Of a stretch of 64,000 nt of DNA, positions 31,936 through 60,942 are shown in pieces. How positions within the stretch are numbered: position 1 is the first letter of the stretch; every line of letters starts with the position of its first letter. The notes under the pieces are model-generated. The model searched no databases and was not told where the DNA came from. It saw nothing but the letters and a program-made list of their open reading frames with translations. A program made the translations under genes and the position numbers. This stretch comes from Patescibacteria group bacterium (lineage in GTDB: Bacteria; Patescibacteriota; Patescibacteriia; Buchananbacterales; UBA6539). Where the stretch lies: the NCBI GenBank assembly GCA_034003985.1, contig JAVEXP010000002.1, forward strand, positions 80,789-144,788, read 5' to 3'.

Positions 31936-31936
31936 G

Positions 31937-36832: not shown

Positions 36833-36869
36833 TTATTTACAACATCAATAGGCCTCAATTTTTAAGAAT

Positions 36870-38535: not shown

Positions 38536-38544
38536 AATTAAAAT

Positions 38545-39834: not shown

Positions 39835-39836
39835 TC

Positions 39837-41545: not shown

Positions 41546-42011
41546 TATTTTAGATATGACTGAAAATTATTTAGTCCGCCCGGTTGAGACCGATGACATT
41601 AAGCGAATTTGGGAAATTAGAAATCACGAAGATGTCAGAAAAGTTTCGGGCAGTTCGGACATTATCACTTTGGAAAATCATCTTAGTTGGTTTAACAAGA
41701 AATATTTTACCACTCGGCAAAATCTTTGTTATGTTTTAGCAAATAACAATCAGATTATTGGCTATTGTCGGTTTGATTACGATCCTGATAAAAATTATTA
41801 TGTTGTTTCGATTGCTGTTGATCCGGAATTTCATAGTCGGGGATTGGGTGGTATCTTGTTGGCTCAAAGCCTTAAAGAATTTGGTGGTCGCGGAGCTGTT
41901 TTGGCTCAAATCAAGAAACTTAATATTCCTTCAATTAAATTGTTTGAGAAAAATGGCTTTGTTTTGGATCATCAAGATCAAGAAAATTGGTATTTAATTT
42001 ATAATAATTAG
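41538..42011 (+). CDS. pseH: GNAT N-acetyltransferase, PseH-like
   Basis: 157 aa; acetyl-CoA motif region RGLGGILLAQSLKEFG; directly follows pseI. Confidence 0.6.
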   Translation: MINILDMTENYLVRPVETDDIKRIWEIRNHEDVRKVSGSSDIITLENHLSWFNKKYFTTRQNLCYVLANNNQIIGYCRFDYDPDKNYYVVSIAVDPEFHSRGLGGILLAQSLKEFGGRGAVLAQIKKLNIPSIKLFEKNGFVLDHQDQENWYLIYNN

Positions 42012-42012
42012 T

Positions 42013-45222: not shown

Positions 45223-45922
45223 GGAAAATATCATTAAATATTTGCTTTCATTATTAAGGATGATTTGGCATTTAATTAAAAAAATTAAACCTTATAAAAC
45301 GGTTTATTTTAACGATTTTAATGCCACGATGGCGATGCCCCTTGATGCTATCCAGGTGATGAAGAGTTGCACTGAGGCTTTAAATCAAGCGGGGATTAAT
45401 TATCATTTGAGTTGGGGCACTGCCTTGGGCCTTTATCGTGATGGTAAATTGATTGGCCATGACACTGATATTGATTGTGACATTATGAATCCCGACATTA
45501 ATCAGATTGATCAGGCTTTAAAGCAGGCTGGGATGGTTATTGGTAAAAAAATTTATTACGGTAAAAAAGTCCAGCAAGCAATTTATGTTTCCTCCGGCGG
45601 AGTGGTCTTTGATGTTTTGTGTTGGTATCGTCGCGGGCAATTTTGTTTTAATCGATGCGAAGAAGATTATATTTTGAGGATTTCTCGCAACTATTTTATT
45701 GGCCATGACACGGTAGTTTATGATGGTGTTAATTATAATGTTCCTAAGCCGATTGAAAAATATCTTGAGTTGTTGTATGGTTCAACTTGGAAAATACCCC
45801 AATCGGCCAAAGGTGACTGGAAAGAGGGCTGTCCAATTGTTTCTAAAAAGTTATCACCATTGAAAAAAATATATTCTAAATTATTGCCGTATTATTATAA
45901 ATATTTGAAAAAAAATGGATAA
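45194..45922 (+). CDS. LicD-family phosphotransferase (phosphocholine/phospho-alcohol transferase family)
   Basis: INYHLSWGTALGLYRDGKLIGHDTDIDCDIM matches the LicD core (GT(A/L)LG...R......D.D.D). Confidence 0.7.
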   Translation: MSNRLISFIEENIIKYLLSLLRMIWHLIKKIKPYKTVYFNDFNATMAMPLDAIQVMKSCTEALNQAGINYHLSWGTALGLYRDGKLIGHDTDIDCDIMNPDINQIDQALKQAGMVIGKKIYYGKKVQQAIYVSSGGVVFDVLCWYRRGQFCFNRCEEDYILRISRNYFIGHDTVVYDGVNYNVPKPIEKYLELLYGSTWKIPQSAKGDWKEGCPIVSKKLSPLKKIYSKLLPYYYKYLKKNG

Positions 45923-47471
45923 AATTACCTTAGAATTTATTGAACAAAATAAAAAATTTTGGCCAGCCCGGCAAAATTTTAATGGCAGCTTTTTACTCGA
46001 TTTAACCTTGGCGGATATCGAATATGTCAATGTCAGACTTGTTACCGCCAGGGCGTTCATGGATCTATATCAGGCTGAACCAATCGTTTTAATTTCCACT
46101 TCTAAAAATCAGAAGCTGATTGAATTAATCAAGAGTTATGGAATTAATAAGTTAATTTATCTAGATAGTATCAAACTCAATTATTGGACTAAGCTATTAT
46201 ATTTTGTTTTGGCAATTTTGAATTGGCTACCGCGCAAGACCAGGGCCAGTTTGTTGAAATTAAAATTTCGGGGAAACCGAATAGGCAATTTTGTTTATGA
46301 TACCTGCATTAACTCGACTGGCTGGGGGACAGTTAATCCTTGGAATACCCGTTATATTAAATTTCTTTATTATGCCTATTGTTTGTATCTTCGCTATGAG
46401 CGGATTTTTAAGCAATGTCATCCAAAATTTTATTTTGGGGTCGAACAGGCTTACATTTCTGGCGGCATTCCTTCGGCTGCAGCGATCGCTAATCAATTAG
46501 GTGTATTCTATGCCAAACTTGGCCCTAATCGGATTGTTTACAAAAGTTATAAGACCATTGCTGACCTGGATATTTATCCTGCTCATCCCAGCAAAGATGA
46601 TTTTGTGTATATCATGGAACAACAAAAATCACAAGCCCTTGAGTGGGCCAATAAGTATCTTGGAAATTTATTTTCCGGCAATGTCAATCCGGCTGATTGG
46701 AATGCCATTAATGCTTTTGGCAAAGCCAAATTGCTTGATCAAGAATTGTATAATAAATTATTTAAATCAGGGTACAAATATCGGGTTTTCATTTTCCCAC
46801 ATGTTACAGTTGATGCCCCTCATGGCTATGTCAACGGGATTTTTAACGATTATGAAGAATGGCTGGTTGAAACTTTAAAAATCGCTTCCCGCCGTCAGGA
46901 TGTTTTGTGGATTTTAAAACCGCACCCCAGTGAAAAGGCTTACCATGTCGAGAAAAAAGTTTCCGATATTTATCATCGGCAGTTTGCCCAATATAAAAAT
47001 ATAATTTTGTACCCGGAGAATACCTCAACCGCCAACTTGGTAAACGAAATCGACGCGATTGTCACTGTTCGGGGTACGGCAATCGGGGAATACAGTTCAA
47101 TGGGAATACCGGTTATTACCGCCGGTCAGAATATGTTTGAGCATGGCAATTTCACCATTTTGCCAAAAGATCGTCAGGATTATGAGCGAGTTTTGATGGC
47201 TACCGAATTTCAGAAACTGTCAGCCGAAAAGATCGATTGCGCCCGAATTAGTTTATACCTTTATTTGCAGTTTAATTCTACTCCAATGCCTTTATTTTCT
47301 GACATTATTTTTGATACTTCCAAGCCGGCTGGTGATCAAATTTATAGTCATTTGTTGAATAAATTAAGAGAAACTAAGGTGGAAGATCTTTGGTCTCAGG
47401 AATTTAAAAACTATCTTAACAATAAATTCTATGATGGATGGAATCAAAAAGATAATCCCGCCGCTGATTAA
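45915..47471 (+). CDS. Capsule_synth (KpsC/KpsS/LipA-like, beta-ulosonate transferase family) protein
   Basis: 518 aa; conserved ILKPHPSEK motif (KxHPxE signature of the KpsC/KpsS family) and preceding VFIFPHVTVDAPHG. Confidence 0.55.
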   Translation: MDKITLEFIEQNKKFWPARQNFNGSFLLDLTLADIEYVNVRLVTARAFMDLYQAEPIVLISTSKNQKLIELIKSYGINKLIYLDSIKLNYWTKLLYFVLAILNWLPRKTRASLLKLKFRGNRIGNFVYDTCINSTGWGTVNPWNTRYIKFLYYAYCLYLRYERIFKQCHPKFYFGVEQAYISGGIPSAAAIANQLGVFYAKLGPNRIVYKSYKTIADLDIYPAHPSKDDFVYIMEQQKSQALEWANKYLGNLFSGNVNPADWNAINAFGKAKLLDQELYNKLFKSGYKYRVFIFPHVTVDAPHGYVNGIFNDYEEWLVETLKIASRRQDVLWILKPHPSEKAYHVEKKVSDIYHRQFAQYKNIILYPENTSTANLVNEIDAIVTVRGTAIGEYSSMGIPVITAGQNMFEHGNFTILPKDRQDYERVLMATEFQKLSAEKIDCARISLYLYLQFNSTPMPLFSDIIFDTSKPAGDQIYSHLLNKLRETKVEDLWSQEFKNYLNNKFYDGWNQKDNPAAD

Positions 47472-48231
47472 GAAAATCATTAAACAGCAAATTTTTTTAA
47501 TCAGCAAATTTTTTATTGTTATTAAACTGGTCATCAGAAATCCTAAAAATTATTTTAACCTCACCAAAGAGGAAAAGAGATTATTCGCTGAGCCGTGGTA
47601 CAATGATTTTTCTGACTTAGGGATCAAGACCCAGCAACAAGATAAAAAAGACAAACTTAACCAGAATTGTAAACAAAAGATCATTTTTGGTTTGATTGGC
47701 CAGGCTTTGGACATTGCTGGAAAAGATTCTTTTGGTTTGGACCTTTTTTGTGCCAATGGTTTTTATGCCAATTATTCAGTCCGGCAGGGAGCAGTAAGAA
47801 TTGACGCTTTAGACCTTAATGAATATGAAATTAGCAAGGCTAAATTGATTACCAAGCTTTTGGGGAATTCCGAAAAAATTAATTTTTTGGTCAAAGATGT
47901 TTTTGAAAGCGCTGGCCCTTATGATTTTGCGATTTGCACCGGCGGACTTTATCATATTTCTAACCCCGATAGACTTTTGGTGGATCTTCGGCAGAAAGTG
48001 AAGAAAGCACTGATTATCCAGACAGTCTATTCCTTGGCTAACGAGGATAAAAATTATTTTGAAACCCCGGCTCCTGGCTGGACTTGGGGCTGTCGTTTTA
48101 GCCATAAATTTTTACTAAATATGGTCGAGTCAGCCGGATGGAATATTATCCATTCCGAAGTGAATGTGCTTCGCGGTAATCACAAACCGCAAAGCCAAGG
48201 CTCAGCCTATTTGTTGTGTGTTCCTAAGTAG
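47431..48231 (+). CDS. Putative SAM-dependent methyltransferase
   Basis: GLDLFCANGFYANYSV (motif I-like) ... FAICTGGLYHISNPDRLL; 266 aa; N-terminal boundary uncertain (41-nt overlap with upstream gene). Confidence 0.5.
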   Translation: MMDGIKKIIPPLIKKIIKQQIFLISKFFIVIKLVIRNPKNYFNLTKEEKRLFAEPWYNDFSDLGIKTQQQDKKDKLNQNCKQKIIFGLIGQALDIAGKDSFGLDLFCANGFYANYSVRQGAVRIDALDLNEYEISKAKLITKLLGNSEKINFLVKDVFESAGPYDFAICTGGLYHISNPDRLLVDLRQKVKKALIIQTVYSLANEDKNYFETPAPGWTWGCRFSHKFLLNMVESAGWNIIHSEVNVLRGNHKPQSQGSAYLLCVPK

Positions 48232-48233
48232 TT

Positions 48234-49019
48234 ATGAAACCAGTTGTCATCGCCGTACCATACTATAAAAATGAATTAAGCCCTGACGAGCAAATATCTT
48301 TGAATCATTTGGAAAAATATCTTGGGCGCTATGATATTTTTTTGGTTGCTCCCGATGGCTTGCAAATTAATTTGGAAAAATATCCGACCAAAAGATTTCC
48401 GGCTAAATATTTTAAAAGTACTAAATCTTATTCCAAATTATTGCTGTTGGAAAGATTCTATAAGCAGTTTAGCGATTACGAATATCTTTTGATTTACCAG
48501 CTTGATTGCTTGGTTTTTTCCGATCAATTGTTGGACTGGTGCCAGCGCGGTGATGATTATATCGGCGCTCCTTGGTTCAAGAGTCAGATGATTAAGCGGT
48601 ATGATTATCCCGATGCCTGCGGCAATGGCGGTTTTTCTTTACGCCGAATTGATAAGGCAATTGAGGTAATTGAAAAAAGCAAATTGCCGTTTTGGAAAAT
48701 TATCAGCCAAAGCTTTCAAACTATTGCCGAAATTCCGTCCTTAAATCCCAAATCAATTTTAAAAGCTATAAAATTGGCATGGAGTAAGTCTGCCGCCTGG
48801 CGAACATTATTAAACGAGGACCGTTATTGGTCTTTTGAAGCCCAAAAAATAGTTGCTGATTTCAAAATTCCGGATGTCGATACTGCTTTGCGGTTTGCTT
48901 TTGAAATCGGCCCTCGGTATTGTTTTGAACGCAATCATCGTCAGCTACCGTTTGGTTGTCACGGCTGGATGAAATATGATCGCAATTTTTGGCTGCCTTA
49001 TATAATAAAAAATAATTAA
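48234..49019 (+). CDS. Hypothetical protein
   Basis: 261-aa in-operon ORF; no confident motif. Confidence 0.45.
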
Positions 49020-49029
49020 CTTAATAATT

Positions 49030-50085
49030 ATGAAAGACAAACAAGCGTTAATTACCGGATCGGGAGGGTTAATTGGTTCAGAGTCAACTAAATTTTTTAT
49101 CAGTCAAGGCTACAAAGTGGTTGGAGTTGATAATGACATGAGAGCTTATTTTTTTGGTTCTGAAGCTTCAACCAAAACTAAAGTGCAGGAATTGCAGAAT
49201 AATTATCCCAATGACTATCAGCATTTCCAGATTGACATTAGAGAGTATAATCAATTGGAAAAAGTTTTTAAAGATAACAATTTTAACATTATTATTCATA
49301 CCGCCGCTCAGCCCAGCCATGATTGGGCGGCCAAAGAACCCTTGACTGATTTTGGTGTTAATGCTTTAGGAACTCTTAATATGTTGGAGCTTGCCCGGCA
49401 GTACTGTTCAGAGGCGACTTTTATTTTTACTTCCACCAATAAAGTCTATGGCGATACCCCCAATTATTTGCCTTTGGTTGAATTGGAAAAGCGTTATGAA
49501 ATCGCTAAGGACCATAAATATTACCGGGGAATAGATGAGACGATGTCAATTGATCAAAGCAAGCATAGTATTTTTGGCGCTTCCAAAGTGGCCGCTGATG
49601 TAATGGTTCAGGAATATGGCCGCTATTTTAATATGCCCACCGCCGTTTTCCGTGGCGGTTGCTTGACTGGGCCGGCTCATAGCGCCGCCGAATTGCACGG
49701 TTTTTTGGCTTACTTGATCAAGTGTATCGCCAGCGGCAAAGAATACACTATTTTTGGCTACAAGGGTAAGCAGGTTAGGGACAATATTCATTCTTACGAT
49801 TTGGTTAATATGTTTTGGCATTTTCACCAGAAACCTCGTCCCGGTGAAGTTTATAATGCCGGCGGGTCTCGCCATTCCAATGTTTCAATGCTTGAAGCGA
49901 TCGAAAAAATTGAAACCGCTTTGGGTCGCAAGGCCAACTATGCTTATTCGGAACAAAACCGGATTGGCGATCATATTTGGTATATTTCCGATGTCTTTAA
50001 ATTTCAGCAGCATTACCCTGATTGGCAATATAAATATGACATCAACGCGATTATTGATGAAATGTGTCGGGCCGTCAGGAACTAG
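49030..50085 (+). CDS. NAD-dependent epimerase/dehydratase (extended SDR, CDP-paratose-2-epimerase-like)
   Basis: [14 protein letters not shown] Rossmann motif, catalytic YGASK (YxxxK), 351 aa. Confidence 0.7.
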
Positions 50086-51113
50086 TTTTTAGCCGAGAAG
50101 ATTTCCTGGTAGGATTGGAGGTGGCTTTGGTACGAGAAGTTTTGTTTAATAGTTGAGAGGGAATTAGCGCTGATAGTTTGAGCTAGTTTTCGATCTCGGA
50201 TGATTTCAGTGATTTCCTTGATCCAATCTTGAGTATCGGCGGCCAGAAAACCATTCTGGCCGTTTTTAATAAAGTGTTTGGCTTCCCCGACATTACTGAC
50301 AATTGTTGGAATGCCATGCTGCATATATTCATAGGTCTTTAAGGGACATTTTCCTTCTTCCCATTGGCTTTGGATCAAGGGGGTTAGGGCAACATCGAAT
50401 CTGACCAACTGGTCGCCAACTTCTTCAGGCTTTAGCCAGTCGATTATTTCTTTTTTTAATCCGGGAATATTAAATAGTTCATAAACCGGCCTATGGCCTT
50501 TGGCACCAATTAGAATTAATTTAAAATCAATGTTTTGGGTAAGCAATCCCTCGATTACCGGTTTGATGATTTCGAGATTGCGGAAGTGAATCTTGCCGTC
50601 GCCGATCCAGCCGATATTGTAAATTGGTTTTTCTTCAAAATCATTTTTGATTGCCTCGGTGTTTTCGGTATCCACTAGCATTGGAATAATTTTGGTATTT
50701 TTATTTATTTTGACGGCATAGTCGTAAAGAAAATGTCCGCCCACCACCACTGATGTCGCCAGTTTGGTCAAGATATAAGTTTTGACGGGGGAGTGCAGGA
50801 AGATAGGGTCGTCAAAATCAAAAATGTATTTTTTTCTTAAAATAAGGCGAAAAAATATAACGATTATTATAAAGTCCAACTGGTAGACGGGCCGATGGAG
50901 GTATAGGGTGTCTTCTTTTTTTAGGCCGCTTAAAATTTTGATATTTTGAATTGCTTCTTTGAATCTTTCAATTGATAAATTCCACCAGGGCCGATGGGTC
51001 GGTACGAAAATTTTTGATTGATAGCCAAAATTTTCAAGATATTTGGCTAAATAAAAAATCCGCCGGCGCGAGCTGGGGACATCTTCGGATCCTTTGGTAA
51101 AAAAATAGATCAT
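50082..51113 (-). CDS. Glycosyltransferase (GT-B, GT1/GT4-like)
   Basis: 343 aa; two-domain GT-B-like layout with C-terminal [26 protein letters not shown]. Confidence 0.5.
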
Positions 51114-51129: not shown

Positions 51130-52521
51130 TTAACATCCCTTTCGGGCCAAGACGATTTTAATGGTTTTTAAGATAATGCTAATATCAAGAGCCAGTGACC
51201 GGTTTTTAATGTAATACAAATCATACTGTAATTTTTCTAGACTTTCTTCTTTGCTGCCGCCATAAGCCGGACCGACCACTTGGGCCCAGCCGGTCAATCC
51301 TGGTTTGGTTAATAATCTTTCTTTGTAAAACGGAATTTCTTGTTGAAGCTGTTCAATAAATTCCGGCCGTTCCGGTCGTGGTCCGATGAGACTCATCTCT
51401 CCGCGCAAAACATTAATCAACTGAGGGATCTCGTCAATTCTGGTTTGGCGCAAAAACTTCCCCAATCTGGTAACTCGGGGGTCGTTTTTAACCGCCCATT
51501 GGGCGCCGTTAACTTCGGCGTTTTGCACCATAGTTCGGAATTTAATTGCCAAAAAATTCTTGCCCAATTTTCCAGTCCGAATTTGAGTAAAAAAGATTGG
51601 GCCGCGGCTATCGATTTTTATGGCTAAAATGATTAATGGTATAAATGGCAAACTCAGTAGCAGCATAATAATTGATAGACCAATATCACTTATTTGTTTG
51701 AAATATTCATACGATTTTTTATTACCCTCGCTTAAATTTTCTAACAGCCAAATTTGCTCAATGGTGTTAACCGGAATTTTGCCCATAATTTTTTCGTAGA
51801 AACTGGCAATCTCAAAAAAATTAATTTTTAAAGGCAGACATTCAAATAGGCTTTGGGAAAGCAGATTGTCCCCGCGGGGATTGGTGATTGAAACAATGAT
51901 GTCAACTTTTTTTTGTTCACAAATATTTTTTAATTCGCCAATTTGCCGATTGATGATCAGTGGTTGAAATTTCTGTGGTATTTCTTCATTTGGTTCGCTT
52001 AAAATAGCGACCAGTTGCAGTCCTAAGTGAGGATTTTTGTCGATTTTATCAATTATTTCTTTAGCCAAGCTGTTGAAGCCGATGATTATTACCCGATTGG
52101 CAATCTTGGAAGATTTGGTCAGGCCTAAAAAAACCAAATGCCAAAGATATATTAAAATTGAAGCTAAGATGATATTAATCGCTAATACCGTCTGGGGTTT
52201 GATGGTGAACAATCGGTTTTGGCCTAGATAGAAAAAGACTATCGATAGACCCGAGCCGATTGCCATTGTTCTTAGCAGCTTAACCAGCAATCCGAGCTTA
52301 CCCTGGGTGAAGTTTAGTTCATAGATGTCATCAATATAAGAAATAATCAGCCAGATTAAAAATACGACCGTAAAAGGCACTAGGTGTTGTGACCATAAGT
52401 TGGTTGTAAAGTCTTGGCCATAACGGATAATCAGGGTTAGATATAAAGAAAAATAGAGGATTATAATATCCCCGGCAATCAGCAAATATTTCTTTGTTCC
52501 AAAAAGCGAGTTTTTTGCCAT
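51130..52521 (-). CDS. Polyprenyl-phosphate hexose-1-phosphate transferase (WbaP/WcaJ-type priming phosphoglycosyltransferase)
   Basis: N-terminal 4-5 TM + central domain, C-terminal bacterial sugar-transferase domain IFFTQIRTGKLGKNFLAIKFRTM...DEIPQLINVLRGEMSLIGPRPERPEF. Confidence 0.85.
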   Translation of the reverse strand: MAKNSLFGTKKYLLIAGDIIILYFSLYLTLIIRYGQDFTTNLWSQHLVPFTVVFLIWLIISYIDDIYELNFTQGKLGLLVKLLRTMAIGSGLSIVFFYLGQNRLFTIKPQTVLAINIILASILIYLWHLVFLGLTKSSKIANRVIIIGFNSLAKEIIDKIDKNPHLGLQLVAILSEPNEEIPQKFQPLIINRQIGELKNICEQKKVDIIVSITNPRGDNLLSQSLFECLPLKINFFEIASFYEKIMGKIPVNTIEQIWLLENLSEGNKKSYEYFKQISDIGLSIIMLLLSLPFIPLIILAIKIDSRGPIFFTQIRTGKLGKNFLAIKFRTMVQNAEVNGAQWAVKNDPRVTRLGKFLRQTRIDEIPQLINVLRGEMSLIGPRPERPEFIEQLQQEIPFYKERLLTKPGLTGWAQVVGPAYGGSKEESLEKLQYDLYYIKNRSLALDISIILKTIKIVLARKGC

Positions 52522-52602
52522 AATTTTTAGAAAAATTATAGCTAGATTATAGTAAATTTTACAGAATTAGTCAATTTGACGGTTGCCTGATTATTTGGGC
52601 TT

Positions 52603-52611
52603 TGCTATAAT
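52603..52611 (+). promoter_or_regulatory. Possible extended -10 promoter element for the O-antigen-ligase-like gene
   Basis: TGcTATAAT ~33 nt upstream of ATG 52644 in the divergent intergenic region; no good -35. Confidence 0.3.
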
Positions 52612-52643
52612 TAATTTGCTTTATAATAACATTTTTTTAACTT

Positions 52644-55097
52644 ATGGAAGCCAGGCTATCCAATTATCTCCTTAAATTTTTGAAAATTGGGGTATTTGTG
52701 ACTCTATTTTTACCCTTAGTGATGAACAGCCATTTTTTCTTTCCCTTTATTGTTTTTAAAAATGTTTTATTCCATATTGCTGTTGAAGTGATGTTTGTGG
52801 CCTATTTATTTTTGGCCAGCATTAACCCTCGTTTTCGTCCCAGATTAGACAAACTCACCATTGCATTGGTGGCTTTTTTTGTCATTTATGTTATGGCGGG
52901 AATATTTGGTATTGGGATTTACAGTAGCTTCTGGGGTAATTACGAAAGAATGTCGGGAATTTTTCACATGTTTCACTTGGTCTTGTATTTTTTGGTGGTG
53001 GCCAATGTTTTTAAAGTCAAAGAAGATTGGCATGCCTTTTTTACTTTTTCAATTTTTGCCAGTTTGCTGATGAGTTTTTTGGGTCTGGCCCAATGGTTGA
53101 AAATTCCTTTTTTGCTGGAATCTTCCGGCGGCAGCCGGTTATCCGGAACAGTTGGTAATGCCACTTTTTTGGCCGCTTATCTGATTTTTAATTTATTTTT
53201 TATTTTATATTTTTGGGCCAAAGAGGAAAGATTCAATTTGAAGCTTTTCGCCGTCAGTTTTTTAAGTTTTGACATTTTTTTGGTTCTGAGTTCAATTTTA
53301 AACAAGCTATTTATTACCAGCGATTGGGGACTTTTAAATATTTTTAAAATTCCAATTTTGATTGAAGGTTTTGATTACCCTAAAATTTGGGTGGCTTATT
53401 TGGTATTTCAGGCTTTAATTCTGGCGGTTTGGCTGCTGCGAACCAAGATCAACGCCGTTCGAGTGTTGTTGTCGGCCATTCTGTTGTTGGATTTTTTCAT
53501 TTTTTTCAATACCCAGACCCGCGGCGCAATCATTGGTTTTGTTTTAGGGGTTGGATTTTTGGCCGTTGCCGGATTGGTCTTTAGCCGCGACAAAAAAATT
53601 AAAGCCGCTGTTGCCGGATTTTTATTATTGGCGGTGATTTCACCCTTTATTCTATTGGCCGCCAAAGATACCAGTTTTATCCAAAACAACGGCACTTTAA
53701 GCCGACTGGCCAATATTTCCAAATCGGATTTGACTACCGAGTCGCGCTTGTTGACCTGGCAGGCCAGTTGGCGAGGTTGGTCGGAAAACTCCAAATCTTT
53801 TTTGATTGGTTATGGTCCGGAAAATTATTACTATGCTTTTAACAAGTATTTCCCGACGGCTATTTACAAAGATGCCGGTTCACGGATTTGGTTTGATCGG
53901 GCCCATAATATTATTTTTGATATTGGAGTTACCACTGGCATTATCGGTTTGGTGAGCTATCTGAGCATTTTGGCTTTGGCCGCTTATTATCTGGTTGCCG
54001 CGTACCGTCAAGTTAAGGAAATTAGTTCCAGCTGGTTATTTGTCGGCTTGCTGATTGCCTATTTCATTCAGAATTTTTTTGTTTTTGATACGATTAATAC
54101 CGAGATCCCGTTCTTTTTGTTTTTAGGTTTTATTGTTTTTCAATATTTTGAGGCGTACTCATCTCAAAATTCGTCTGCCACGAATTATCGGGAGATAAAT
54201 TATATTTATCTTGCCACTTTGGCGGTGGTTTTATTGTTTGGCGTTTTGGCTGTCAATGTTCGGGTGCTTAAATCCAATAATTACATTTTTAAAGCCTTGA
54301 CTGGCAACGGCGATGTCCAAATCGCTTTTGATTATTTCAAACAGGCCATTGATCAATCTCTGACCGGTCGGTTTGAGGCTCGGCAACAAATCGCTGATTT
54401 TGCCAATCGGCTGTTGACCAACCAGAGCGTTAATAATAACAAAAAATCAGAGATTATTAGTTTTGCCGGTTTGGAACTGAAAAAAAGCATTGACGAAGAA
54501 CCACTGAATGTTCGCCATTACATTTTTTTGGCCAATTTTCGGAATTCCACGGCCGCGGCTAATATTCAAGCGGTTCAAGAGGCAGCTGATTTAATGTCTC
54601 AAGCCATTGAATTAAGTCCCAATAGACCTCATGTCTATTCCGAGTTGGCCAAGGCTGAAGTTTTGCTCGGTAATTTTGAAGCAGGGGAGAAGTGGTTTAA
54701 ACAGTCCGCCGCGCTGGCACCTTGGGTAATTGATGTTCACTGGAATTTGTTGACCGTTTATATCATGTTTGAAAAGTATGATTTGGCTGATGAATACATG
54801 GAGTACATGAAACAGGAGCTTGACTGGCAGCCTGGCGTTCAGGACTATGGCCGGTTGGTTGATTTGTACGCCCGCGTTAAAAATTACAACCGGATGCTTG
54901 AAGCTCAACTTTTAAAGATTGAAATTGAATCAACGGCCGATAACTATGCTCAGCTGGCCGCCATTCATGCCAAGCTTGGTCAAAACGAACAAGCCCGCCA
55001 GGCTACTCAAAGGGCTGTTGAAATAAACCCAGAATTTTCCGGTCAGGCCCAACAATTTTTACAACTTCTGGATCAGGGGGAATTATTAGATAAATAA
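52644..55097 (+). CDS. O-antigen ligase family (Wzy_C) polytopic membrane protein fused to a C-terminal TPR-repeat domain (WaaL/PglL/WsaB-like)
   Basis: 817 aa; >10 TM; large loop with FDRAHNIIFDIGVTTGIIGLVSY (Wzy_C AHN...G..G motif with the conserved His); C-terminal ~250 aa of TPR-like repeats. Confidence 0.75.
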   Translation: MEARLSNYLLKFLKIGVFVTLFLPLVMNSHFFFPFIVFKNVLFHIAVEVMFVAYLFLASINPRFRPRLDKLTIALVAFFVIYVMAGIFGIGIYSSFWGNYERMSGIFHMFHLVLYFLVVANVFKVKEDWHAFFTFSIFASLLMSFLGLAQWLKIPFLLESSGGSRLSGTVGNATFLAAYLIFNLFFILYFWAKEERFNLKLFAVSFLSFDIFLVLSSILNKLFITSDWGLLNIFKIPILIEGFDYPKIWVAYLVFQALILAVWLLRTKINAVRVLLSAILLLDFFIFFNTQTRGAIIGFVLGVGFLAVAGLVFSRDKKIKAAVAGFLLLAVISPFILLAAKDTSFIQNNGTLSRLANISKSDLTTESRLLTWQASWRGWSENSKSFLIGYGPENYYYAFNKYFPTAIYKDAGSRIWFDRAHNIIFDIGVTTGIIGLVSYLSILALAAYYLVAAYRQVKEISSSWLFVGLLIAYFIQNFFVFDTINTEIPFFLFLGFIVFQYFEAYSSQNSSATNYREINYIYLATLAVVLLFGVLAVNVRVLKSNNYIFKALTGNGDVQIAFDYFKQAIDQSLTGRFEARQQIADFANRLLTNQSVNNNKKSEIISFAGLELKKSIDEEPLNVRHYIFLANFRNSTAAANIQAVQEAADLMSQAIELSPNRPHVYSELAKAEVLLGNFEAGEKWFKQSAALAPWVIDVHWNLLTVYIMFEKYDLADEYMEYMKQELDWQPGVQDYGRLVDLYARVKNYNRMLEAQLLKIEIESTADNYAQLAAIHAKLGQNEQARQATQRAVEINPEFSGQAQQFLQLLDQGELLDK

Positions 55098-55098: not shown

Positions 55099-57363
55099 TT
55101 GATGAGACTGAAAAGAAATTTAATCCCAAGCGTTTTTTTGGTGTTGGCTTTGAGCCTGTCGGCTTGTGTTTTTTATCCGCCGCTATTGGCTCGCGCCTCT
55201 CAGTTGCCTCTTGGCCAGTATCAGCCAGGTGAATTTTTAGTCAGATTTAAAAGTAATCCCAAGGTTTATCGTTTTAAGACAACCCCTGATTTGGACATTG
55301 AGGCTGCCATTGCTAAATATGGCCGTTGGGACTCAGTTGAATTCATTGAACCAAACTATTTGTATCAGGCCGCTGCTTTCCCTAATGATCCAGATTATTC
55401 TTTACAGTGGTACCTGACTGCGGTCAATGCTAAGGAGGCCTGGTCAAAAGAATTGCTTTTGCGCCAGACCAACCCTAATCTCAAAGATCCGATTATTGCC
55501 GTCTTGGATACCGGAGTTTACCTGAATCACCCTGATTTAAAAGATCAGATTTGGACCAACCCCAAAGAAATCGCCAATGATGGGATTGACAATGACCGCA
55601 ACGGTTACATTGATGATGTCTACGGCTGGGATTTTCTTGATGATGATTCTGACCCGAATCCTTCATTCAGCGCAAATTATGATGCCGATGCCGTTAACCA
55701 CGGTACGATTGTTGCCGGTATTGCCGCGGCGGCTAATAACAACTTTCAAGGAATTGCCGGTGTCAGTTGGTCAGGCAAGATTATGCCGTTGCGGGTTTTG
55801 GATAGCCACGGCGGCGGGGAAGTCTACTCGGTAATCCGAGCGGTTGACTATGCCATCGCCAACGGGGCTGATGTTATCAACATGAGTTTTGTCGGCGATG
55901 ATTTTAGCCAGGCGTTGTTTGATGCCGTGCTTAAGGCTTATAACCATAATGTTATTGTCGTGGCGGCGGCCGGCAACACTAATCCCGGCGTCAATGGCGT
56001 TGATTTGGATGTTGCCAAATCATACCCGGTTTGTTTTCAGGGACCCCAGGGTGAAAATATGATTATTGGGGTCGCGTCGATCGGCAAAAATTTGGTTAAG
56101 TCGCCGTTTTCCAATTATGGCAGCTGTATTGATTTAGTTGCTCCGGGCGAAAGTTTTTATGCCACCCAGGTCAAACAATCCGGCATTTCCGGGTTTGAGA
56201 ATTATTACAACGGCTATTGGTCCGGTACTTCCTTGTCAACGCCGATTGTTAGTGCCGTTTTGGCTACCGTTAAGTCACTTAACCCTTTGGCCACTATTGA
56301 CCAAATTCAGTCGGTGGTCTTGAAGGCCACTAAAGATGTTTATTCTTATAACAGTATTTATCGCGATAAATTAGGTTATGGTCTAGTTGATTTCTATAAA
56401 GCCATTAATACTTCGTTGGCCAAAACCAATCCGGTTTCTCAAACCAATCAGAATCATTATATTTTGGCGGGGCTTGGTTACGGCTCTTTTCCGCAATTAA
56501 AGCTCCTTGCTTCAGACGATGGTCGGGAGTTCAAATCATTTTTTGCTTACAGTCCTTATTTTAACGGCGCTGTCAGGGTGGCATCCGGTGATTTGAATGG
56601 CGATGGTCAGCCCGAAGTGATTACCGGCACCGGCATCGGTGGTGGCCCGCATGTCAGAATTTTTGATATCAATGGCAAATTGATCTCGCAATTTTTTGCC
56701 TACGCCAAAGATTTTCGCGGTGGGGTTAATATTGCGACTGCCGATTTGGATAATGACGGCAAAGCCGAAATCATTACCGGCCCGGGTCCAGGTATTGAGC
56801 CGGAAGTCAAAGTGTTTGATTTGAATGGTAATCAGAAGCTTGGTTTCCTGGCCTATGGTCAAAATTTTTTGGGTGGGGTTAAAGTTGCCGCTGGTGATGT
56901 TGACGGTGACGGTCGTGACAACATTGTTGTTGGCGCTGGGAACGGCGGCGGTCCGCATGTTCGGATTTTTGAATATAACGGTAAATTACTGTCGCAATTT
57001 TTTGCTTACAACAGTGATTTCCATGGTGGGGTGAATGTTGCCGTTGGTGATTTCCATGGCGACGGTAAAGCGGAAATTGTCGTCAGTATTGAAAAAGATT
57101 CTTTGCCCACCGTCAGAGTGTTTAATTATCAGGGCATTAAACTTTCCGATTTTTTCGCTTTTGAATTTGATTTTCTAAAAGGTGTGGAGGTCGCAGTTGG
57201 CGATGTTACCGGCGACGGCCTGGCCGAAATCATCGCCGGAAAAGCTCAAGGTGGAGCGCCCTTAATTAAAATTTTTAATATTAACGGTAAGTTGAAATCC
57301 GAATTTTTTGCCCACAGTAAGGGTTATACCGGTGGCGTTAGAACCGCGGTTATTAGTTTTTAG
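55099..57363 (+). CDS. Secreted subtilisin-like S8 serine protease with C-terminal FG-GAP beta-propeller repeats
   Basis: Signal peptide; catalytic triad motifs AVLDTGV (Asp), HGTIVAGIAAA (His), GTSLSTPIVSA (Ser); six ~47-aa repeats of G-D-x-x-G-D-G-x-x-E-I-x-x-G ... G-G-P-x-V-x-x-F. Confidence 0.8.
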   Translation: MMRLKRNLIPSVFLVLALSLSACVFYPPLLARASQLPLGQYQPGEFLVRFKSNPKVYRFKTTPDLDIEAAIAKYGRWDSVEFIEPNYLYQAAAFPNDPDYSLQWYLTAVNAKEAWSKELLLRQTNPNLKDPIIAVLDTGVYLNHPDLKDQIWTNPKEIANDGIDNDRNGYIDDVYGWDFLDDDSDPNPSFSANYDADAVNHGTIVAGIAAAANNNFQGIAGVSWSGKIMPLRVLDSHGGGEVYSVIRAVDYAIANGADVINMSFVGDDFSQALFDAVLKAYNHNVIVVAAAGNTNPGVNGVDLDVAKSYPVCFQGPQGENMIIGVASIGKNLVKSPFSNYGSCIDLVAPGESFYATQVKQSGISGFENYYNGYWSGTSLSTPIVSAVLATVKSLNPLATIDQIQSVVLKATKDVYSYNSIYRDKLGYGLVDFYKAINTSLAKTNPVSQTNQNHYILAGLGYGSFPQLKLLASDDGREFKSFFAYSPYFNGAVRVASGDLNGDGQPEVITGTGIGGGPHVRIFDINGKLISQFFAYAKDFRGGVNIATADLDNDGKAEIITGPGPGIEPEVKVFDLNGNQKLGFLAYGQNFLGGVKVAAGDVDGDGRDNIVVGAGNGGGPHVRIFEYNGKLLSQFFAYNSDFHGGVNVAVGDFHGDGKAEIVVSIEKDSLPTVRVFNYQGIKLSDFFAFEFDFLKGVEVAVGDVTGDGLAEIIAGKAQGGAPLIKIFNINGKLKSEFFAHSKGYTGGVRTAVISF
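56509..57360 (+). repeat. Tandem coding repeats (FG-GAP-like modules, about six copies of ~140 bp)
   Basis: DNA-level similarity between units, e.g. ggtggtggcccgcatgtcagaatttttgatatcaatggcaaattgatctcgcaattttttgcctac vs ggcggcggtccgcatgttcggatttttgaatataacggtaaattactgtcgcaattttttgcttac. Confidence 0.6.
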
Positions 57364-57365: not shown

Positions 57366-57815
57366 ATGTTTTTTGATTTTATTAAGCGTCAAGTTTTCAT
57401 CCGGCAGTTTGTTAAATTTTGTGTTGTCGGCGGTTTGGCCGCCGTTATTAATTTTATTTTACTTTATGCTTTAACGGAATGGTTTGGGATCTGGTATGTG
57501 ATTTCTTCGGCCTTCGGCGGGGTGATTTCGGCAATTTGGAATTTTTTGGCCAATAAGTTTTGGACTTTTCGCAACCGCGACCGCGGGCGTCAGGCTTTGG
57601 AGCAGATGTTTAAGTTCATCGTGGTAATCGGCAGCGGGGTAGTGGTTAATACTTTACTGGTCTATTTGTTCACCGATTTCGGCGGACTTGATTATCGTTG
57701 GTCTTGGGTTTTGGCCACTGGCGTTGTTACTTTTTGGAATTTTGGGTTTAACCGGTTTTGGACCTTTGGCGCCAAATCGGGGATTGATCCAAAGTTGCTT
57801 TCCGGTTCTTTTTAG
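57366..57815 (+). CDS. GtrA-family small membrane protein (polyprenyl-phosphate-sugar flippase family)
   Basis: 149 aa, 4 TM, FVKFCVVGGLAAVINFILLYAL...WNFLANKFWTF pattern. Confidence 0.75.
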   Translation: MFFDFIKRQVFIRQFVKFCVVGGLAAVINFILLYALTEWFGIWYVISSAFGGVISAIWNFLANKFWTFRNRDRGRQALEQMFKFIVVIGSGVVVNTLLVYLFTDFGGLDYRWSWVLATGVVTFWNFGFNRFWTFGAKSGIDPKLLSGSF

Positions 57816-57860: not shown

Positions 57861-58886
57861 ATGCCAAAAGTTGCCATTTTCGAGAAAAAAAATATTTTGG
57901 TAACCGGTGGGGCGGGGTTTATCGGTTCACATTTATGCGATGAGTTGGTTAAGGACAATAAGGTTATTTGCGTTGACAATTTTATTTCCGGGGATGAGGC
58001 CAATATCGATTATCTGCTGCGTAATCCAGATTTTAAGTTTATTAAACACGACATTAATGAACCGTTGGGCTTGGAGGCTTTGCCGGAATTGGAAGACTTT
58101 CGGATTAAGTTTCAGGGCCTTCAGGAGATTTATCATTTAGCTTGTCCAACCTCGCCTAAGGATTTCGAAAAAACCAGAATTCAGACCGCCTGGGCCAATT
58201 CGGTCGGTGTGAAGAACGCTTTGGATTTAGCCGTCAAATATAAGGCTAAATTTTTGCTTAGCTCCTCTTCGGTGGTTTACGGTCCGCGTGAGGCCAAAAA
58301 TAAATTTTTTTCGGAAAACTACACCGGGTTGGTTGACCAATTGAGTCCCCGTGCCTGTTATGATGAAGGTAAGCGCTTTGCCGAAACTTTGACTGAGACT
58401 TACGGCGAAGTCTATAATCTTGATACTAAAATCGTCAGGATTTTTAGGACCTACGGTCCGCGGATGAAATTGAATATCGGTGAGATGCTGCCCGATTTTG
58501 TTTCCGATGCTTTGGACAATAAAGATTTGGTGATTTATGGCGACCAGGATTTTTCTTCCTCTTTCTGCCATGTTTCCGATATCATTGAAGGAATGATTAA
58601 AGTCATGAAGAGCGGAGAAAGCGGTCCTTTGAATTTGGGTAGTGATTTGGAATACAAATTGGTGGATGTCGCCCAGAAAGTAATTGACATGACTGGCTCA
58701 AAATCAAAAATTATTTTTAAAAAACCCTTGCTGTTTATGTCTCCTTTGGGACTGCCTGACATCAGCCAGATTAAAGAGCGCCTGGGTTGGTTTCCGGTAG
58801 TTTTGCTAGAAGATGGCCTTCAGGGCGCGATTGATTACTTCAAGGCTCATAAGTCAATTTTGGGTCCGACCAGCCGGTTTAAATAA
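57861..58886 (+). CDS. UDP-glucuronate decarboxylase (UDP-xylose synthase, UXS family)
   Basis: ILVTGGAGFIGSHL; IYHLACPTSP; SPRACYDEGKRFAETL; RIFRTYGPRM, each matching UXS signature blocks (IYHLASPASP / PRACYDEGKR / RIFNTFGPRM) as recalled. Confidence 0.8.
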   Translation: MPKVAIFEKKNILVTGGAGFIGSHLCDELVKDNKVICVDNFISGDEANIDYLLRNPDFKFIKHDINEPLGLEALPELEDFRIKFQGLQEIYHLACPTSPKDFEKTRIQTAWANSVGVKNALDLAVKYKAKFLLSSSSVVYGPREAKNKFFSENYTGLVDQLSPRACYDEGKRFAETLTETYGEVYNLDTKIVRIFRTYGPRMKLNIGEMLPDFVSDALDNKDLVIYGDQDFSSSFCHVSDIIEGMIKVMKSGESGPLNLGSDLEYKLVDVAQKVIDMTGSKSKIIFKKPLLFMSPLGLPDISQIKERLGWFPVVLLEDGLQGAIDYFKAHKSILGPTSRFK

Positions 58887-58893
58887 TTTAGTT

Positions 58894-59571
58894 ATGAAGA
58901 CCGCGGTAGTAATTCCAGCTTACAATGAGTCCAAAATAATCAGTCAGACTATTGCCGGCCTCAGAGCCCAAAATCAGGTTAGTGAAGTGATTGTGGTTGA
59001 TGACGGCTCTGCCGACAATACCGGCCCGGCGGCTCGTGCTGCCGGTGCGGTGGTCTTGCGTCATCTTGTTAATCGCGGTCAGGGTGCAGCTTTACAAACC
59101 GGCATTAACTTTGCCTTAAAGCATGGCGCCAAAATCATTATTACCTTCGATGCCGACGGTCAGCATGACGCTAAAGAGATTGTTAAGATGATTGAACCGA
59201 TAATTTCGGGCCAATCGGCAGTAGTCTTGGGTTCTCGATTTTTGGTTAAGCAAAATCAAGTTCCTTTCAGTCGTTTGGCCGTTTTGAAACTGGCGATAAT
59301 ATTTACCAGGATTTATACTGGTTTAACAGTCACCGATGTCCATAACGGCTTTCGGGCATTTTCGGCCAAAGCCGCCAGCCAGCTTGATCTTCGGCAAGAC
59401 GGCATGGCTCATGCTTCCGAAATTCTTGAACAAATTCGGAAGCATCGCTTGGCTTTCTGCGAGGTGCCAGTCACTATTGCTTATACTGATTATTCTTTGC
59501 ATAAAGGCCAGCGCTTAAGCAACTCCTTTCGCATCGTTTTTGAATTAATTTTGGGGCGTTTAACCAAATGA
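58894..59571 (+). CDS. GT2 polyprenyl-phosphate glycosyltransferase (DPM1/GtrB/ArnC-like)
   Basis: MKTAVVIPAYNES...VIVVDDGSADNT (DxD region), 225 aa from ATG 58894; the ORF-track N-terminal extension overlapping uxs rejected. Confidence 0.75.
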   Translation: MKTAVVIPAYNESKIISQTIAGLRAQNQVSEVIVVDDGSADNTGPAARAAGAVVLRHLVNRGQGAALQTGINFALKHGAKIIITFDADGQHDAKEIVKMIEPIISGQSAVVLGSRFLVKQNQVPFSRLAVLKLAIIFTRIYTGLTVTDVHNGFRAFSAKAASQLDLRQDGMAHASEILEQIRKHRLAFCEVPVTIAYTDYSLHKGQRLSNSFRIVFELILGRLTK

Positions 59572-59900
59572 TTATCAAAATTTTAATCATCGTTTTTATC
59601 CTATTTGCCGTTTATCGTACGGTTGCCAGGTTCCGTCAGCGCGATATCGCTTTTCGGGAATTATTGATTTGGCTAATATTTTGGTTGCTGGTTGGTTTGG
59701 TGACGATTTTCCCCCAAAAGACCGACAGCATCGCCCAGTGGCTGGGTGTAAGTCGTGGTGCTGATTTGTTGGTTTATATTTCAATTATCGTATTGTTTTT
59801 TGCCGTTTTTAAGATTATCGTCAAACAGGAAAAAATTGAGCGCGATATCACCAAAATTGTCCGGGCCAAAGCCTTGGCCGAAAAACCAGATCATGAGTAG
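59568..59900 (+). CDS. Small 3-TM membrane protein (DUF2304-like), commonly paired with GT2 enzymes
   Basis: 110 aa; MIIKILIIVFILFAVYRTV...; overlaps neighbours by 4-8 nt. Confidence 0.5.
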   Translation: MIIKILIIVFILFAVYRTVARFRQRDIAFRELLIWLIFWLLVGLVTIFPQKTDSIAQWLGVSRGADLLVYISIIVLFFAVFKIIVKQEKIERDITKIVRAKALAEKPDHE

Positions 59901-60942
59901 TAAGAAAGTTTTAATAGTCATTGCAGTCCATAACGGCACCGATTTCCTCGGTGACTGTTTGTCTAGTCTTGCCAAAATCAATTACCCACAGGAAGACTTA
60001 ACTATTTTAGCTGTCGATGACTGCTCAACTGACAATTCGGTTGAATATCTCAAAACGACTTGGCCGCAGGTTGAGCTAATTATCAATCAGACCAATCTTG
60101 GTTTTGCCGTCAGTAATAATTTGGGATTTCAATACGCCCTTGACCATAATTTTGCCTATGTTTATATGTTGAATCAGGATACTGTCGTGGAGCCTGATTT
60201 TTTGTTTAAGGCAGTAGCTCTGGCTGAAAGTGATTCCCGTATCGGTGCGGTTCAGTCAAAACTGATGCTGTTTGCCGACCCAAACAAGATTAACAGTATC
60301 GGCAACGAGATCCACTTTTTGGGTTTTGCTTTCGCCGGCGGTTATCAATCCGCCGACCAGAATTTAGCGGCCAAGGAAATCACTTATCCTTCGGGCGCCG
60401 CGGTATTGTTGAAAACTTCAGCTTTAAAACAAATCGGTTTTTTGAATCCCGATTTTTTTATGTACCACGAAGATACCGACTTGGGCTGGCGGCTGTGGCT
60501 GGCGGGCTGGCGCGTGATGCTATCTCCCGATTCCGTGGTCTATCACAAGTATGAGTTTTCCCGCAGTATCAAAAAATATTATTACATGGAGCGCAATCGT
60601 TATTTGATTATTTTTCAAAATTATAAAATCGCCACTTTAATTTTACTTGCCCCAGCTTTGGCGGTTATGGACACGGCCATGATTTTTTATTCTTTCCTCA
60701 ACGGTTGGCATCGTCAGGAATTGCGTGCCATTAATTATTTGTTCAGTCCTTTGGCCTGGCAAAAAATCTATCATACTCGCAGAGCCGTTCAGGCTAGTCG
60801 CTGCGTCAAAGATCGCGAAATTGTCAAACGGTTTGTTGGCCGGATTGATTTTCAGGATATCCAAAATCCCTTATTGGAATATTTGGTCAACCCGGTATTT
60901 GATTTTTATTGGAAGATTATCCGGCATATTATTTTTTGGTAA
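59893..60942 (+). CDS. GT2 glycosyltransferase (rhamnosyl/WbbL-like GT-A)
   Basis: Start at MSSKKVLIVIAVHNGTD (ATG 59893); LAVDDCSTDNS, YMLNQDTVV (DxD region), C-terminal amphipathic/TM segment. Confidence 0.75.
   Translation: MSSKKVLIVIAVHNGTDFLGDCLSSLAKINYPQEDLTILAVDDCSTDNSVEYLKTTWPQVELIINQTNLGFAVSNNLGFQYALDHNFAYVYMLNQDTVVEPDFLFKAVALAESDSRIGAVQSKLMLFADPNKINSIGNEIHFLGFAFAGGYQSADQNLAAKEITYPSGAAVLLKTSALKQIGFLNPDFFMYHEDTDLGWRLWLAGWRVMLSPDSVVYHKYEFSRSIKKYYYMERNRYLIIFQNYKIATLILLAPALAVMDTAMIFYSFLNGWHRQELRAINYLFSPLAWQKIYHTRRAVQASRCVKDREIVKRFVGRIDFQDIQNPLLEYLVNPVFDFYWKIIRHIIFW

Follow-up and report, generated by a model that had tools for sequence, protein, structure and literature searches.

The window considered here is a stretch of 64,000 nt of contig JAVEXP010000002.1 (GCA_034003985.1; positions 80,789-144,788, forward strand) from an uncultured, ultra-small Patescibacteria group bacterium. 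At 52644..55097, its plus strand holds an ATG-initiated open reading frame (ORF) of 817 aa, hereafter the target, whose product is a putative membrane glycan ligase of the WaaL/PglL type with a C-terminal tetratricopeptide repeat (TPR) domain. It is discussed below as a candidate O-oligosaccharyltransferase for secreted surface proteins. The protein is 100% identical to the NCBI entry 'MAG: O-antigen ligase family protein [Patescibacteria group bacterium]' (MAG, metagenome-assembled genome) and is annotated by JGI as an O-antigen ligase and TPR pilus-assembly protein. An original prediction, made from the sequence alone, had described this ORF as a Wzy_C membrane domain with more than 10 transmembrane (TM) helices followed by about 250 aa of TPR-like repeats, and had singled out a loop motif, FDRAHNIIFDIGVTTGIIG, that contains a histidine. 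The description is borne out by the position of the ORF and by Pfam. Wzy_C (PF04932) is matched at aa 279-440 (E 6.6e-17, 62.1 bits against a gathering cut-off of 31.7), as it is in all 49 aligned homologs, and TPR families are matched at aa ~579-800 (TPR_2 E 4.2e-10, TPR_19 7.5e-7 and others). The motif begins at aa 417 and its histidine is H421.

The AlphaFold2 (AF2) model of the target, obtained from the 49 homologs (predicted local distance difference test score, pLDDT, 91.2; predicted template modelling score, pTM, 0.88), contains 15 membrane helices, 11 before and four after an external loop region of 83 aa (aa 340-422). The membrane domain (aa 1-553; 52644..54302) was delimited from these helices, from hydropathy and from the Foldseek match to WaaL 7tpg_B given below. 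The putative catalytic loop (aa 340-432; 53661..53939), defined by invariant alignment columns and by the alignments with WaaL, carries R368, W416, D418 and H421. In the C-terminal part of the model, 14 helices (558-810) form about seven TPR-like pairs over ~260 aa. This TPR domain (aa 554-817, 264 aa; 54303..55094), delimited from Pfam, from PDB matches and from the predicted topology, resembles the solved OGT and consensus TPR proteins in both sequence and fold. Conservation is highest in the external loop, where homologs share on average 60% pairwise identity, and lowest in the TPR domain (34%). Wzy_C_2 (PF11846) is matched in the C-terminal part of 10 of the 49 homologs (best E 1.5e-5) and is not matched in the target. 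An invariant 'LSPxRPxxY' segment (aa 657-665) was considered as a functional site of the TPR domain and dropped: it coincides with the standard inter-repeat consensus of consensus TPR proteins (cf. 'ALELDPRSAEAW') and is thus probably structural.

The nearest relative of known structure is a ligase, WaaL, of the GT-C_B fold. Since PDB searches with the full-length target or its profile return TPR proteins only, the membrane domain was searched on its own. The sole match of its profile is the WaaL of C. metallidurans (7TPG/7TPJ; E 0.025). Foldseek aligned the target model with 7tpg_B (E 2.9e-4, probability 1.0, TM-score 0.64 normalised to WaaL, 15% identity), and this WaaL is the only membrane-protein fold among the top 50 PDB matches. 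In the profile alignment, R293, R368 and H421 are paired with chain positions 191, 265 and 313 of the C. metallidurans protein, the last within a 'HAHN' motif. For E. coli K-12 WaaL (b3622), R293 falls opposite R215 in the hhalign alignment; a local pairwise alignment matches R293 with R215, R368 with R288 and H421 with H338. The three residues (codons 53520-53522, 53745-53747 and 53904-53906) are invariant across the 49-sequence alignment together with W416, D418, Q476 and D482. R368 and H421 belong to the external loop and R293 is found on a short external turn preceding it. The roles given to these residues rest on the present alignments, on the published description of PglS and on the E. 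coli WaaL literature concerning R215, R288 and H337-338. The histidine/arginine signature on which the original prediction depended is thus present, and from its sequence the target looks like a ligase- or transferase-type Wzy_C protein rather than a Wzy polymerase.

The orientation of the protein in the membrane was deduced from charge distribution. With the N terminus inside, short loops contain on average, over the 49 homologs, 20.7 lysine and arginine residues on the inner side versus 8.2 on the outer side, a bias of the same sign in 49/49 homologs. By these positive-inside counts and the parity of the helices, the H421 loop is on the outer side, as in WaaL. Because four TM helices separate this external loop from the TPR domain, the latter is predicted to face the outside of the cell as well, rather than the cytoplasm. 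This arrangement differs from that of canonical WaaL, which has ~12 TM helices, a cytoplasmic C terminus and no extra domain; the target, with its 15 TM helices and external TPR domain, does not conform to it. Taken with the signature described above, the target is very probably a glycan ligase acting at the outer face of the membrane.

The genes next to the target belong to a recurrent module. At 51130..52521 on the minus strand, 122 bp away and divergent as the original prediction had noted, lies the gene of a 463-aa polyprenyl-phosphate glycosylphosphotransferase (PGT), the priming enzyme of such pathways (Bac_transf E 2.4e-66; TIGR03025 396 bits, above cut-off). The intergenic region (52522..52643) contains back-to-back matches to the sigma-70 promoter consensus, TTGACT-17-TATAAT on the minus strand (52574..52546, 11/12) and TTGCCT-17-TATAAT with a TG on the plus strand (52583..52611, 10/12). 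Downstream of the PGT gene and on the same strand is found a GT4 glycosyltransferase gene (50082..51113; Pfam Glyco_trans_1_4 / Glycos_transf_1). On the plus strand, the target is followed at 55099..57363 by the gene of a secreted S8 subtilase with FG-GAP repeats (Peptidase_S8 E 5.4e-48, FG-GAP, signal peptide). The junction sequence shows that the subtilase starts 1-4 nt past the ligase stop codon, so that both proteins are probably co-translated. The protease was first considered as a lipoprotein. This was dropped, the LSAC lipobox-like motif of the window copy being found in only 4/33 homologs, and its signal peptide is taken as an ordinary one. Next come genes for a small GtrA-family membrane protein, a candidate polyprenyl-phosphate-sugar flippase (57366..57815, +; GtrA_DPMS_TM E 8.5e-30; syntenic in relatives), and, as the conserved 3' end of the module, for a short-chain dehydrogenase/reductase (SDR) epimerase/dehydratase (57861..58886, +) and two GT2 glycosyltransferases (58813..59571 and 59755..60942, both +), all three identified by Pfam. 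Terminator-like matches inside the operon were in no excess over those of shuffled sequences.

The conservation of this arrangement was surveyed in 80 further genome loci, searched by tblastn and blastp with the window proteins, 55 of which had enough flanking DNA to be evaluated. Detection with the window proteins undercounts divergent neighbours, and some surveyed loci share populations, so that phylogenetic non-independence remains in the counts after removal of identical proteins. The module consisting of the divergent PGT, the ligase, S8/FG-GAP, in some cases GtrA, SDR and GT2 is found again at homologs with identities of 55%, 53% and as low as 34%, and the SDR-GT2-GT2 order is kept in L001, L002, L006-L021 and others. 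The S8/FG-GAP gene is directly downstream of relatives in 29/76 loci and the coupling persists down to 28-34% ligase identity. Among the evaluable loci, 21/55 have the PGT together with an immediately downstream S8/FG-GAP gene, 17/55 the PGT only and 1/55 the S8 gene only. Another 13/55 lie directly downstream of a homolog of a large secreted protein described below, one combines PGT, S8 and this big protein, and two have none of the three. Overall, a PGT gene adjoins relatives of the target in 39/55 loci.

The large protein in question heads the same island of genes. It is a secreted Ser/Thr/Ala-rich protein of 1232 aa with tandem beta-sandwich domains (13742..17440, +), a candidate acceptor of S-layer-like or adhesin-like type. 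It has no Pfam or NCBIfam match, and its homologs in databases are all 'hypothetical' Patescibacteria proteins of ~1200 aa. Serine and threonine make up 23.6% of its residues versus 11% in the other window proteins, and it is acidic and poor in Lys, Arg, Cys, His and Met. The AF2 model of aa 1-700 (pLDDT 83.5) shows an N-terminal signal-type helix, a mixed alpha/beta module (aa 36-183) and then tandem Ig-like beta-sandwiches, which match by fold the leg domains of integrins and the Ig-like arrays found in the adhesins PrgB, AspA and SpaP. Some distant full-length homologs bear the peptidoglycan-binding domain PF01471 (PG_binding_1), which fits a wall-associated surface protein. The N-terminal module of ~150 aa (aa 33-186; 13838..14299) is also found at the C terminus of separate 420-450-aa proteins (L004 7534..8889, L020 16395..17669, L037 202..1566), that of L004 being encoded just upstream of a Wzy_C-TPR gene, and is possibly a wall-anchoring domain. 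Over 14001..18000, coincident with the 1232-aa gene, GC content rises to 0.47 with a negative GC skew. This is likely due to an Ala/Gly/Thr/Ser-rich composition rather than to a foreign origin.

The surroundings of the 1232-aa gene are conserved as well. It is preceded by genes for an extracytoplasmic function (ECF) sigma factor (12007..12573, +; upstream in 31/41 big-protein loci) and a DUF5667 membrane protein (12566..13474, +; 29/41), and followed by those of a PMT_2 protein (17563..19263, +), a small membrane-anchored TPR protein (19268..19966, +; Pfam and TM prediction) and a second PMT_2 protein (19973..21622, +), the others being identified by Pfam. In other genomes, relatives of the target lie directly after a big-protein gene in 14/55 of their evaluable loci. 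In a Parcubacteria MAG, a full-length homolog of the 1232-aa protein (32% identity, E 7e-153) is encoded just upstream of two tandem Wzy_C genes and is preceded by ECF-sigma and DUF5667 genes, as in the window. The reverse test gave a similar picture. It used 80 metagenome loci retrieved by the big protein alone, with a profile made from a 5-sequence alignment, a 13-sequence alignment being too divergent; the 44 loci with at least 4 kb downstream were counted. A Wzy_C-TPR gene lies within 5 kb downstream on the same strand in 26/44 loci, a PMT_2 gene in 16/44 and one or both in 36/44. The other eight continue with GT4 genes, and the small TPR protein is found downstream in 42/44. The recurrent cassette consists of ECF sigma factor, DUF5667 protein, ~1200-aa tandem-Ig protein, small TPR protein and membrane transferase (Wzy_C-TPR and/or PMT_2), often preceded by an HtrA-like protease, and was seen at 12007..21622 of the window and in L005, L020, L022, L030, L044, L046, L053, L082 and L086-L165. 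The proposal of the original prediction that the Thr/Ser-rich 1232-aa protein is the substrate of the target thus gains comparative support (14/55 and 26/44); it gains none from proximity in the window, where the two genes are not neighbours.

Upstream of the island, 5996..10299 encodes a PilT-like T2SSE ATPase, an N_methyl pilin-like protein (8200..8688), a single-TM 276-aa protein and an 8-TM DUF5656 protein, and L166 and L167 keep this gene order. Type IV pilins are thus another conceivable acceptor: the target could be an O-oligosaccharyltransferase of the PilO/TfpO/PglL kind, the 1232-aa protein being served by the PMT_2 pair. PilO and PglL do glycosylate pilins (PMC2943079), the PilT-like ATPase and pilin-like genes (5996-8688) stand just upstream of the big-protein locus in the window, L166 and L167, and it is PMT_2 rather than Wzy_C-TPR genes that follow the big-protein gene in the window. 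The survey speaks against pilins, the recurrent direct neighbour of the relatives being the big protein or the PGT/S8 pair, and 53/55 evaluable loci adjoining PGT, S8 or a big-protein homolog, with pilin-like genes not among the markers searched. A pilin-specific function appears distinctly unlikely.

Both ends described above belong to one long surface-glycan island that extends from ~13.7 kb to 61 kb of the window. The glycan-assembly cassette between them (21623..50085, Pfam) includes GT4 glycosyltransferases, a UDP-sugar dehydrogenase, epimerases, nonulosonic-acid genes, LicD, methyltransferases, DUF5672 and an ABC exporter. The exporter (32236..34029, +; Pfam ABC_membrane and ABC_tran, i.e. 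fused transmembrane and nucleotide-binding domains) is of the HepA/MsbA/PglK-like kind and a candidate flippase for lipid-linked glycans. In NCBIfam it matches HepA_fam_ABC (5.7e-105), MsbA (7.7e-92) and PglK (5.2e-69), all under the equivalog cut-offs. The genes at 34034..41545, which code for a PseB-like dehydratase, a DegT aminotransferase, two CTP_transf_3 cytidylyltransferases, a GFO/IDH oxidoreductase, NeuB and a GNAT protein, appear to form a set for the synthesis of a nonulosonic acid of the pseudaminic or legionaminic type, so a sialic-acid-like sugar is probably part of the glycan. Two related genomes likewise have the big-protein end and the PGT/ligase/S8 end on one contig and in the same orientation. 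The two ends are separated by 35 kb in the window, by ~34 kb in JABWCG010000001.1 (~91-131 kb, L166/L001) and by ~60 kb in Ga0376277_0000023 (~415-481 kb, L167/L002). The genes in between differ: the flanks that were read contain nonulosonic-acid genes in the window and L001, and radical-SAM and Asn-synthase genes in L002. This has the appearance of a glycan cassette that varies while its two ends are conserved, and it resembles O-antigen or capsule loci.

The content of the island bears on two other explanations of the target. According to the first, it is a Wzy-type polymerase joining undecaprenyl diphosphate (Und-PP)-linked repeat units at the outer face, with the TPR domain as a scaffold for chain-length control or a Wzz-like co-polymerase. 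Pfam Wzy_C indeed spans polymerases and ligases, the target gene adjoins the PGT and many glycosyltransferase genes, and the locus of one relative (L004) has a Polysacc_synt (Wzx-type) gene. Set against this are the invariant WaaL-type His/Arg/Arg set, a ligase as nearest solved structure and the inventory of the window. The polytopic membrane proteins of the island are only the two PMT_2 proteins, the ABC exporter, the PGT, the target and GtrA; no window protein matches the Wzx family (Polysacc_synt/MATE) or Wzz/polysaccharide co-polymerase (PCP) families or resembles a second Wzy, and the sole exporter is of the ABC type. Moreover, as the target is the only Wzy_C-family protein in the window, its being the polymerase would leave the island with no ligase or transferase to deliver the product. 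A polymerase is considered very unlikely.

The second explanation is a ligase comparable to TacL, which would move a polyprenyl-PP-linked glycopolymer, such as a teichoic-acid-like or secondary wall polymer, onto a membrane glycolipid or another non-protein acceptor, with the TPR domain scaffolding partner enzymes. Pneumococcal TacL is a Wzy_C protein performing such a reaction in a monoderm (PMC5727136). The ligase signature fits it equally well, the island has, in common with teichoic-acid pathways, genes for LicD, two CTP_transf_3 cytidylyltransferases and an NTP-transferase fusion, and the commonest neighbour of the relatives is the PGT and not a protein substrate. Yet TacL has 397 aa and no TPR domain, whereas the external TPR domain is conserved in the target family. 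The relatives are repeatedly found right after a large secreted-protein gene, along with that of the small TPR protein, a link that this explanation leaves unaccounted for, and the target itself is coupled in translation to a secreted protease. No glycolipid-anchor synthase was recognised in the window. Such an acceptor seems rather unlikely, if less readily dismissed than a polymerase.

Two further regions of the window lie apart from these genes. The segment 62001..64000, with a GC content of 0.31 versus ~0.40-0.44 nearby and a change of sign of the GC skew, holds a C-5 cytosine DNA methylase gene (62043..63158, minus strand) and a 260-aa ORF that received no assignment; it is possibly a restriction-modification or mobile insert. 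A 245-aa ORF with a TTG start (3317..4054, +) is probably not a real gene: the window's single tRNA gene, for tRNA-Pro CGG (3318..3394, -), overlaps it.

The preferred reading is that the target is an O-oligosaccharyltransferase for one or several secreted surface proteins, with a probability of about 0.5. In the proposed pathway, the divergent PGT, whose family assignment is firm, would prime a cytoplasmic polyprenyl-phosphate carrier, on which the GT4 and sugar-nucleotide enzymes encoded between 21.6 and 50 kb would build an oligosaccharide, probably with a nonulosonic acid. The HepA/PglK-like ABC exporter would flip the lipid-PP-glycan to the outer face, where the target would bind it at its external loop. 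By alignment with WaaL, R293 and R368 would hold the pyrophosphate and H421 would be catalytic, and the glycan would be moved en bloc onto an extracytoplasmic acceptor. The TPR domain of ~260 aa, predicted to face outward, most likely holds a protein partner. The best candidate for the acceptor is the 1232-aa tandem-Ig family heading the same island, the second being the type IV pilin-like proteins. The S8/FG-GAP protease would act, more speculatively, on the same exported substrate.

That the acceptor is a protein is suggested by the conserved external TPR domain, by published precedents, by the tight coupling to a secreted protease and by the recurrence of relatives of the target and of the small TPR protein right after the big-protein gene, and is given roughly even chances. 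It is established that Patescibacteria are monoderm and devoid of lipopolysaccharide (LPS), so lipid A-core should not be the acceptor; no Lpx or Waa genes were found in the 64-kb window. Among proteins, the big-protein family is the best candidate. That the 1232-aa protein itself is the acceptor is nevertheless proposed only tentatively, with the balance somewhat against it. The idea of a 'general' O-oligosaccharyltransferase, also part of the original prediction, finds no support in these data.

Several observations count against the preferred reading. The similarity between the target and WaaL is remote (profile E 0.025; 15% identity by fold). The NCBIfam scan of the target returned no ligase, oligosaccharyltransferase or polymerase equivalog, with TPR-type partial matches only. 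PglL_A (PF15864) is not matched by the target (E <= 0.01) and is outside the 25 commonest families of the 49 homologs. The target is not next to the gene of the 1232-aa protein but 35 kb downstream, at the opposite end of the island, and the genes that directly follow that of the 1232-aa protein are in the window the two PMT_2 genes and the small TPR gene, not the target. The LicD and cytidylyltransferase genes of the window also fit a teichoic-acid-like polymer. TPR domains scaffold polysaccharide machineries too, and the TPR domain is therefore no proof of a protein acceptor. In a neighbour-joining (NJ) tree, calculated with no bootstraps, the PGT/S8 and big-protein contexts are interleaved, so that function is not simply transferable between paralogs. 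MAG S139_113 holds both kinds of copy (L060, L063). A clean split into two orthologous groups by context is not claimed in view of this interleaving and of the lack of bootstraps.

The family itself is very large. Nearly all of the 120 best database matches of the target are proteins of 750-900 aa with Wzy_C and TPR, and the organisms named among them are Buchananbacteria, Parcubacteria or Patescibacteria. A scan with one genome per species found a relative of the target in at least 573 genomes, and the membrane-domain profile retrieved 3162 clusters at 50% identity (E <= 1e-30), most of the top 150 of which have 700-900 aa. Across this very large family, the Wzy_C-TPR fusion is thus the rule and not the exception. 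Most of the 80 loci kept from the genome scan belong to MAGs that bear the name of a Patescibacteria lineage (Buchanan-, Komeili-, Kuenen-, Doudna-, Nealson-, Portnoy-, Falkow-, Taylor-, Sungii- and Saccharibacteria), the remaining records being labelled merely 'bacterium' or 'uncultured Gammaproteobacteria'. The records titled 'uncultured Gammaproteobacteria bacterium' (L013, L018, L027, L029, L039, L041, L044, L053, L056, L057, L059, L067 and L071) carry loci of the Patescibacteria type, most of them with the PGT/ligase/S8 module or the big-protein cassette, L071 being too short to tell. The Gammaproteobacteria labels on these MAG records are probably wrong.

The architecture is not new. It is common, is annotated automatically by NCBI and JGI, and has published precedents. 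Two O-oligosaccharyltransferases, WsfB and PglL, were noted in 2010 to have a C-terminal TPR besides Wzy_C, and in the case of WsaB the TPR partner is a separate protein, WsaA (PMC2943079). The model of PglS has 13 TM helices and, in the periplasm, a large C-terminal domain (PMC12800693). In the literature collection that was searched, no paper on the Patescibacteria Wzy_C-TPR family was found, and the target is best filed as an uncharacterised member, in a Patescibacteria clade, of the known kind of Wzy_C ligases and O-oligosaccharyltransferases with a C-terminal TPR domain.

In the Patescibacteria, or candidate phyla radiation (CPR), the glycosylation of proteins and the assembly of the envelope are essentially unstudied, and what is supplied here is an enzyme with named catalytic residues, a candidate family of ~1200-aa surface substrates and a conserved PGT-ligase-S8 module. 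The main product of the analysis is the set of comparative ties between the family and one surface-protein family, a coupled protease and an island with conserved ends. A protein acceptor would extend O-glycosylation of the WsfB/PglL type to a very large uncultured radiation, and a TPR-guided O-oligosaccharyltransferase could join the bioconjugation toolbox. A wider system can be sketched, although it must be regarded as doubtful as a whole: an ECF-sigma-controlled, wall-associated and S-layer-like tandem-Ig protein of ~1200 aa, conserved in many Patescibacteria, would receive its glycan outside the cell from membrane transferases with TPRs (Wzy_C-TPR and/or PMT_2, aided by the small TPR protein) and then be processed by the coupled S8/FG-GAP protease, its glycan being set by the variable cassette between conserved ends. 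Were this system real, the surface of these episymbionts would vary in a serotype-like manner, which would matter for their attachment to hosts and their escape from phages.

The closest parallels among characterised systems are the S-layer O-oligosaccharyltransferases of monoderms. WsfB of Paenibacillus alvei has like the target a Wzy_C membrane domain and a C-terminal TPR; in the WsaB/WsaA pair of Geobacillus stearothermophilus the TPR protein, WsaA, is separate and small (PMC2943079). WsaA is paralleled by the protein encoded at 19268..19966, conserved in 42/44 loci. Both systems, compared here by description only, are encoded in a glycan cluster with a priming Gal-1-P transferase and are tied to a large surface protein (PMC2943079), an organisation that the island may share. 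In contrast to them, the target possesses 15 TM helices and has an S8/FG-GAP protease as its partner, lattice formation is not inferable from the features of its putative substrate, and the island would use a HepA/PglK-like exporter instead of Wzm/Wzt.

PglL of Neisseria, PglS of Acinetobacter and PilO/TfpO share with the target the Wzy_C/RfaL domain, the catalytic histidine with flanking arginines and, presumably, the en bloc transfer of an Und-PP-linked glycan, PglL and PglS being compared by description only. An extra TM helix sets the C-terminal domain of PglS in the periplasm (13 TM helices, domain 438-548, H324; PMC12800693), just as TM15 would place the TPR domain of the target outside, and PglL is described, like the target, with a C-terminal TPR motif (PMC2943079). 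The target differs from these enzymes by the absence of PglL_A and of a Wzy_C_2 match (present in 10 of the 49 homologs), by its 15 TM helices, by its monoderm host and by a longer, canonical TPR domain of ~7 repeats. TacL, the pneumococcal lipoteichoic acid ligase, is also a Wzy_C ligase acting on a polymer linked to Und-PP, on the outer side of the membrane of a monoderm, but with 397 aa, no TPR and a glycolipid acceptor, compared with 817 aa and a TPR domain in the target (PMC5727136). WaaL (C. metallidurans 7TPG/7TPJ; E. coli K-12 b3622) provides the nearest solved structure, with aligned Arg/Arg/His residues and a catalytic loop at the outer face; unlike the target it has ~400-420 aa, no TPR domain and lipid A-core as acceptor, and no NCBIfam WaaL model matches the target. 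In eukaryotes, the GT-C O-mannosyltransferases TMTC1-4, with luminal TPRs, and OGT have a TPR array fused to a glycosyltransferase, which is thought to select protein substrates. The analogy with the TPR domain of the target is functional only, their catalytic folds and donors being unrelated or distantly related. Overall, the target departs from the canonical WaaL architecture, the PglL_A domain, the compactness of TacL and a Wzx/Wzz partnership, and it combines membership of the Wzy_C family, a WaaL-like fold, the catalytic residues and an external C-terminal domain. By analogy, the best reading, held at about even odds, is that it works like WsfB, PglL and PglS.

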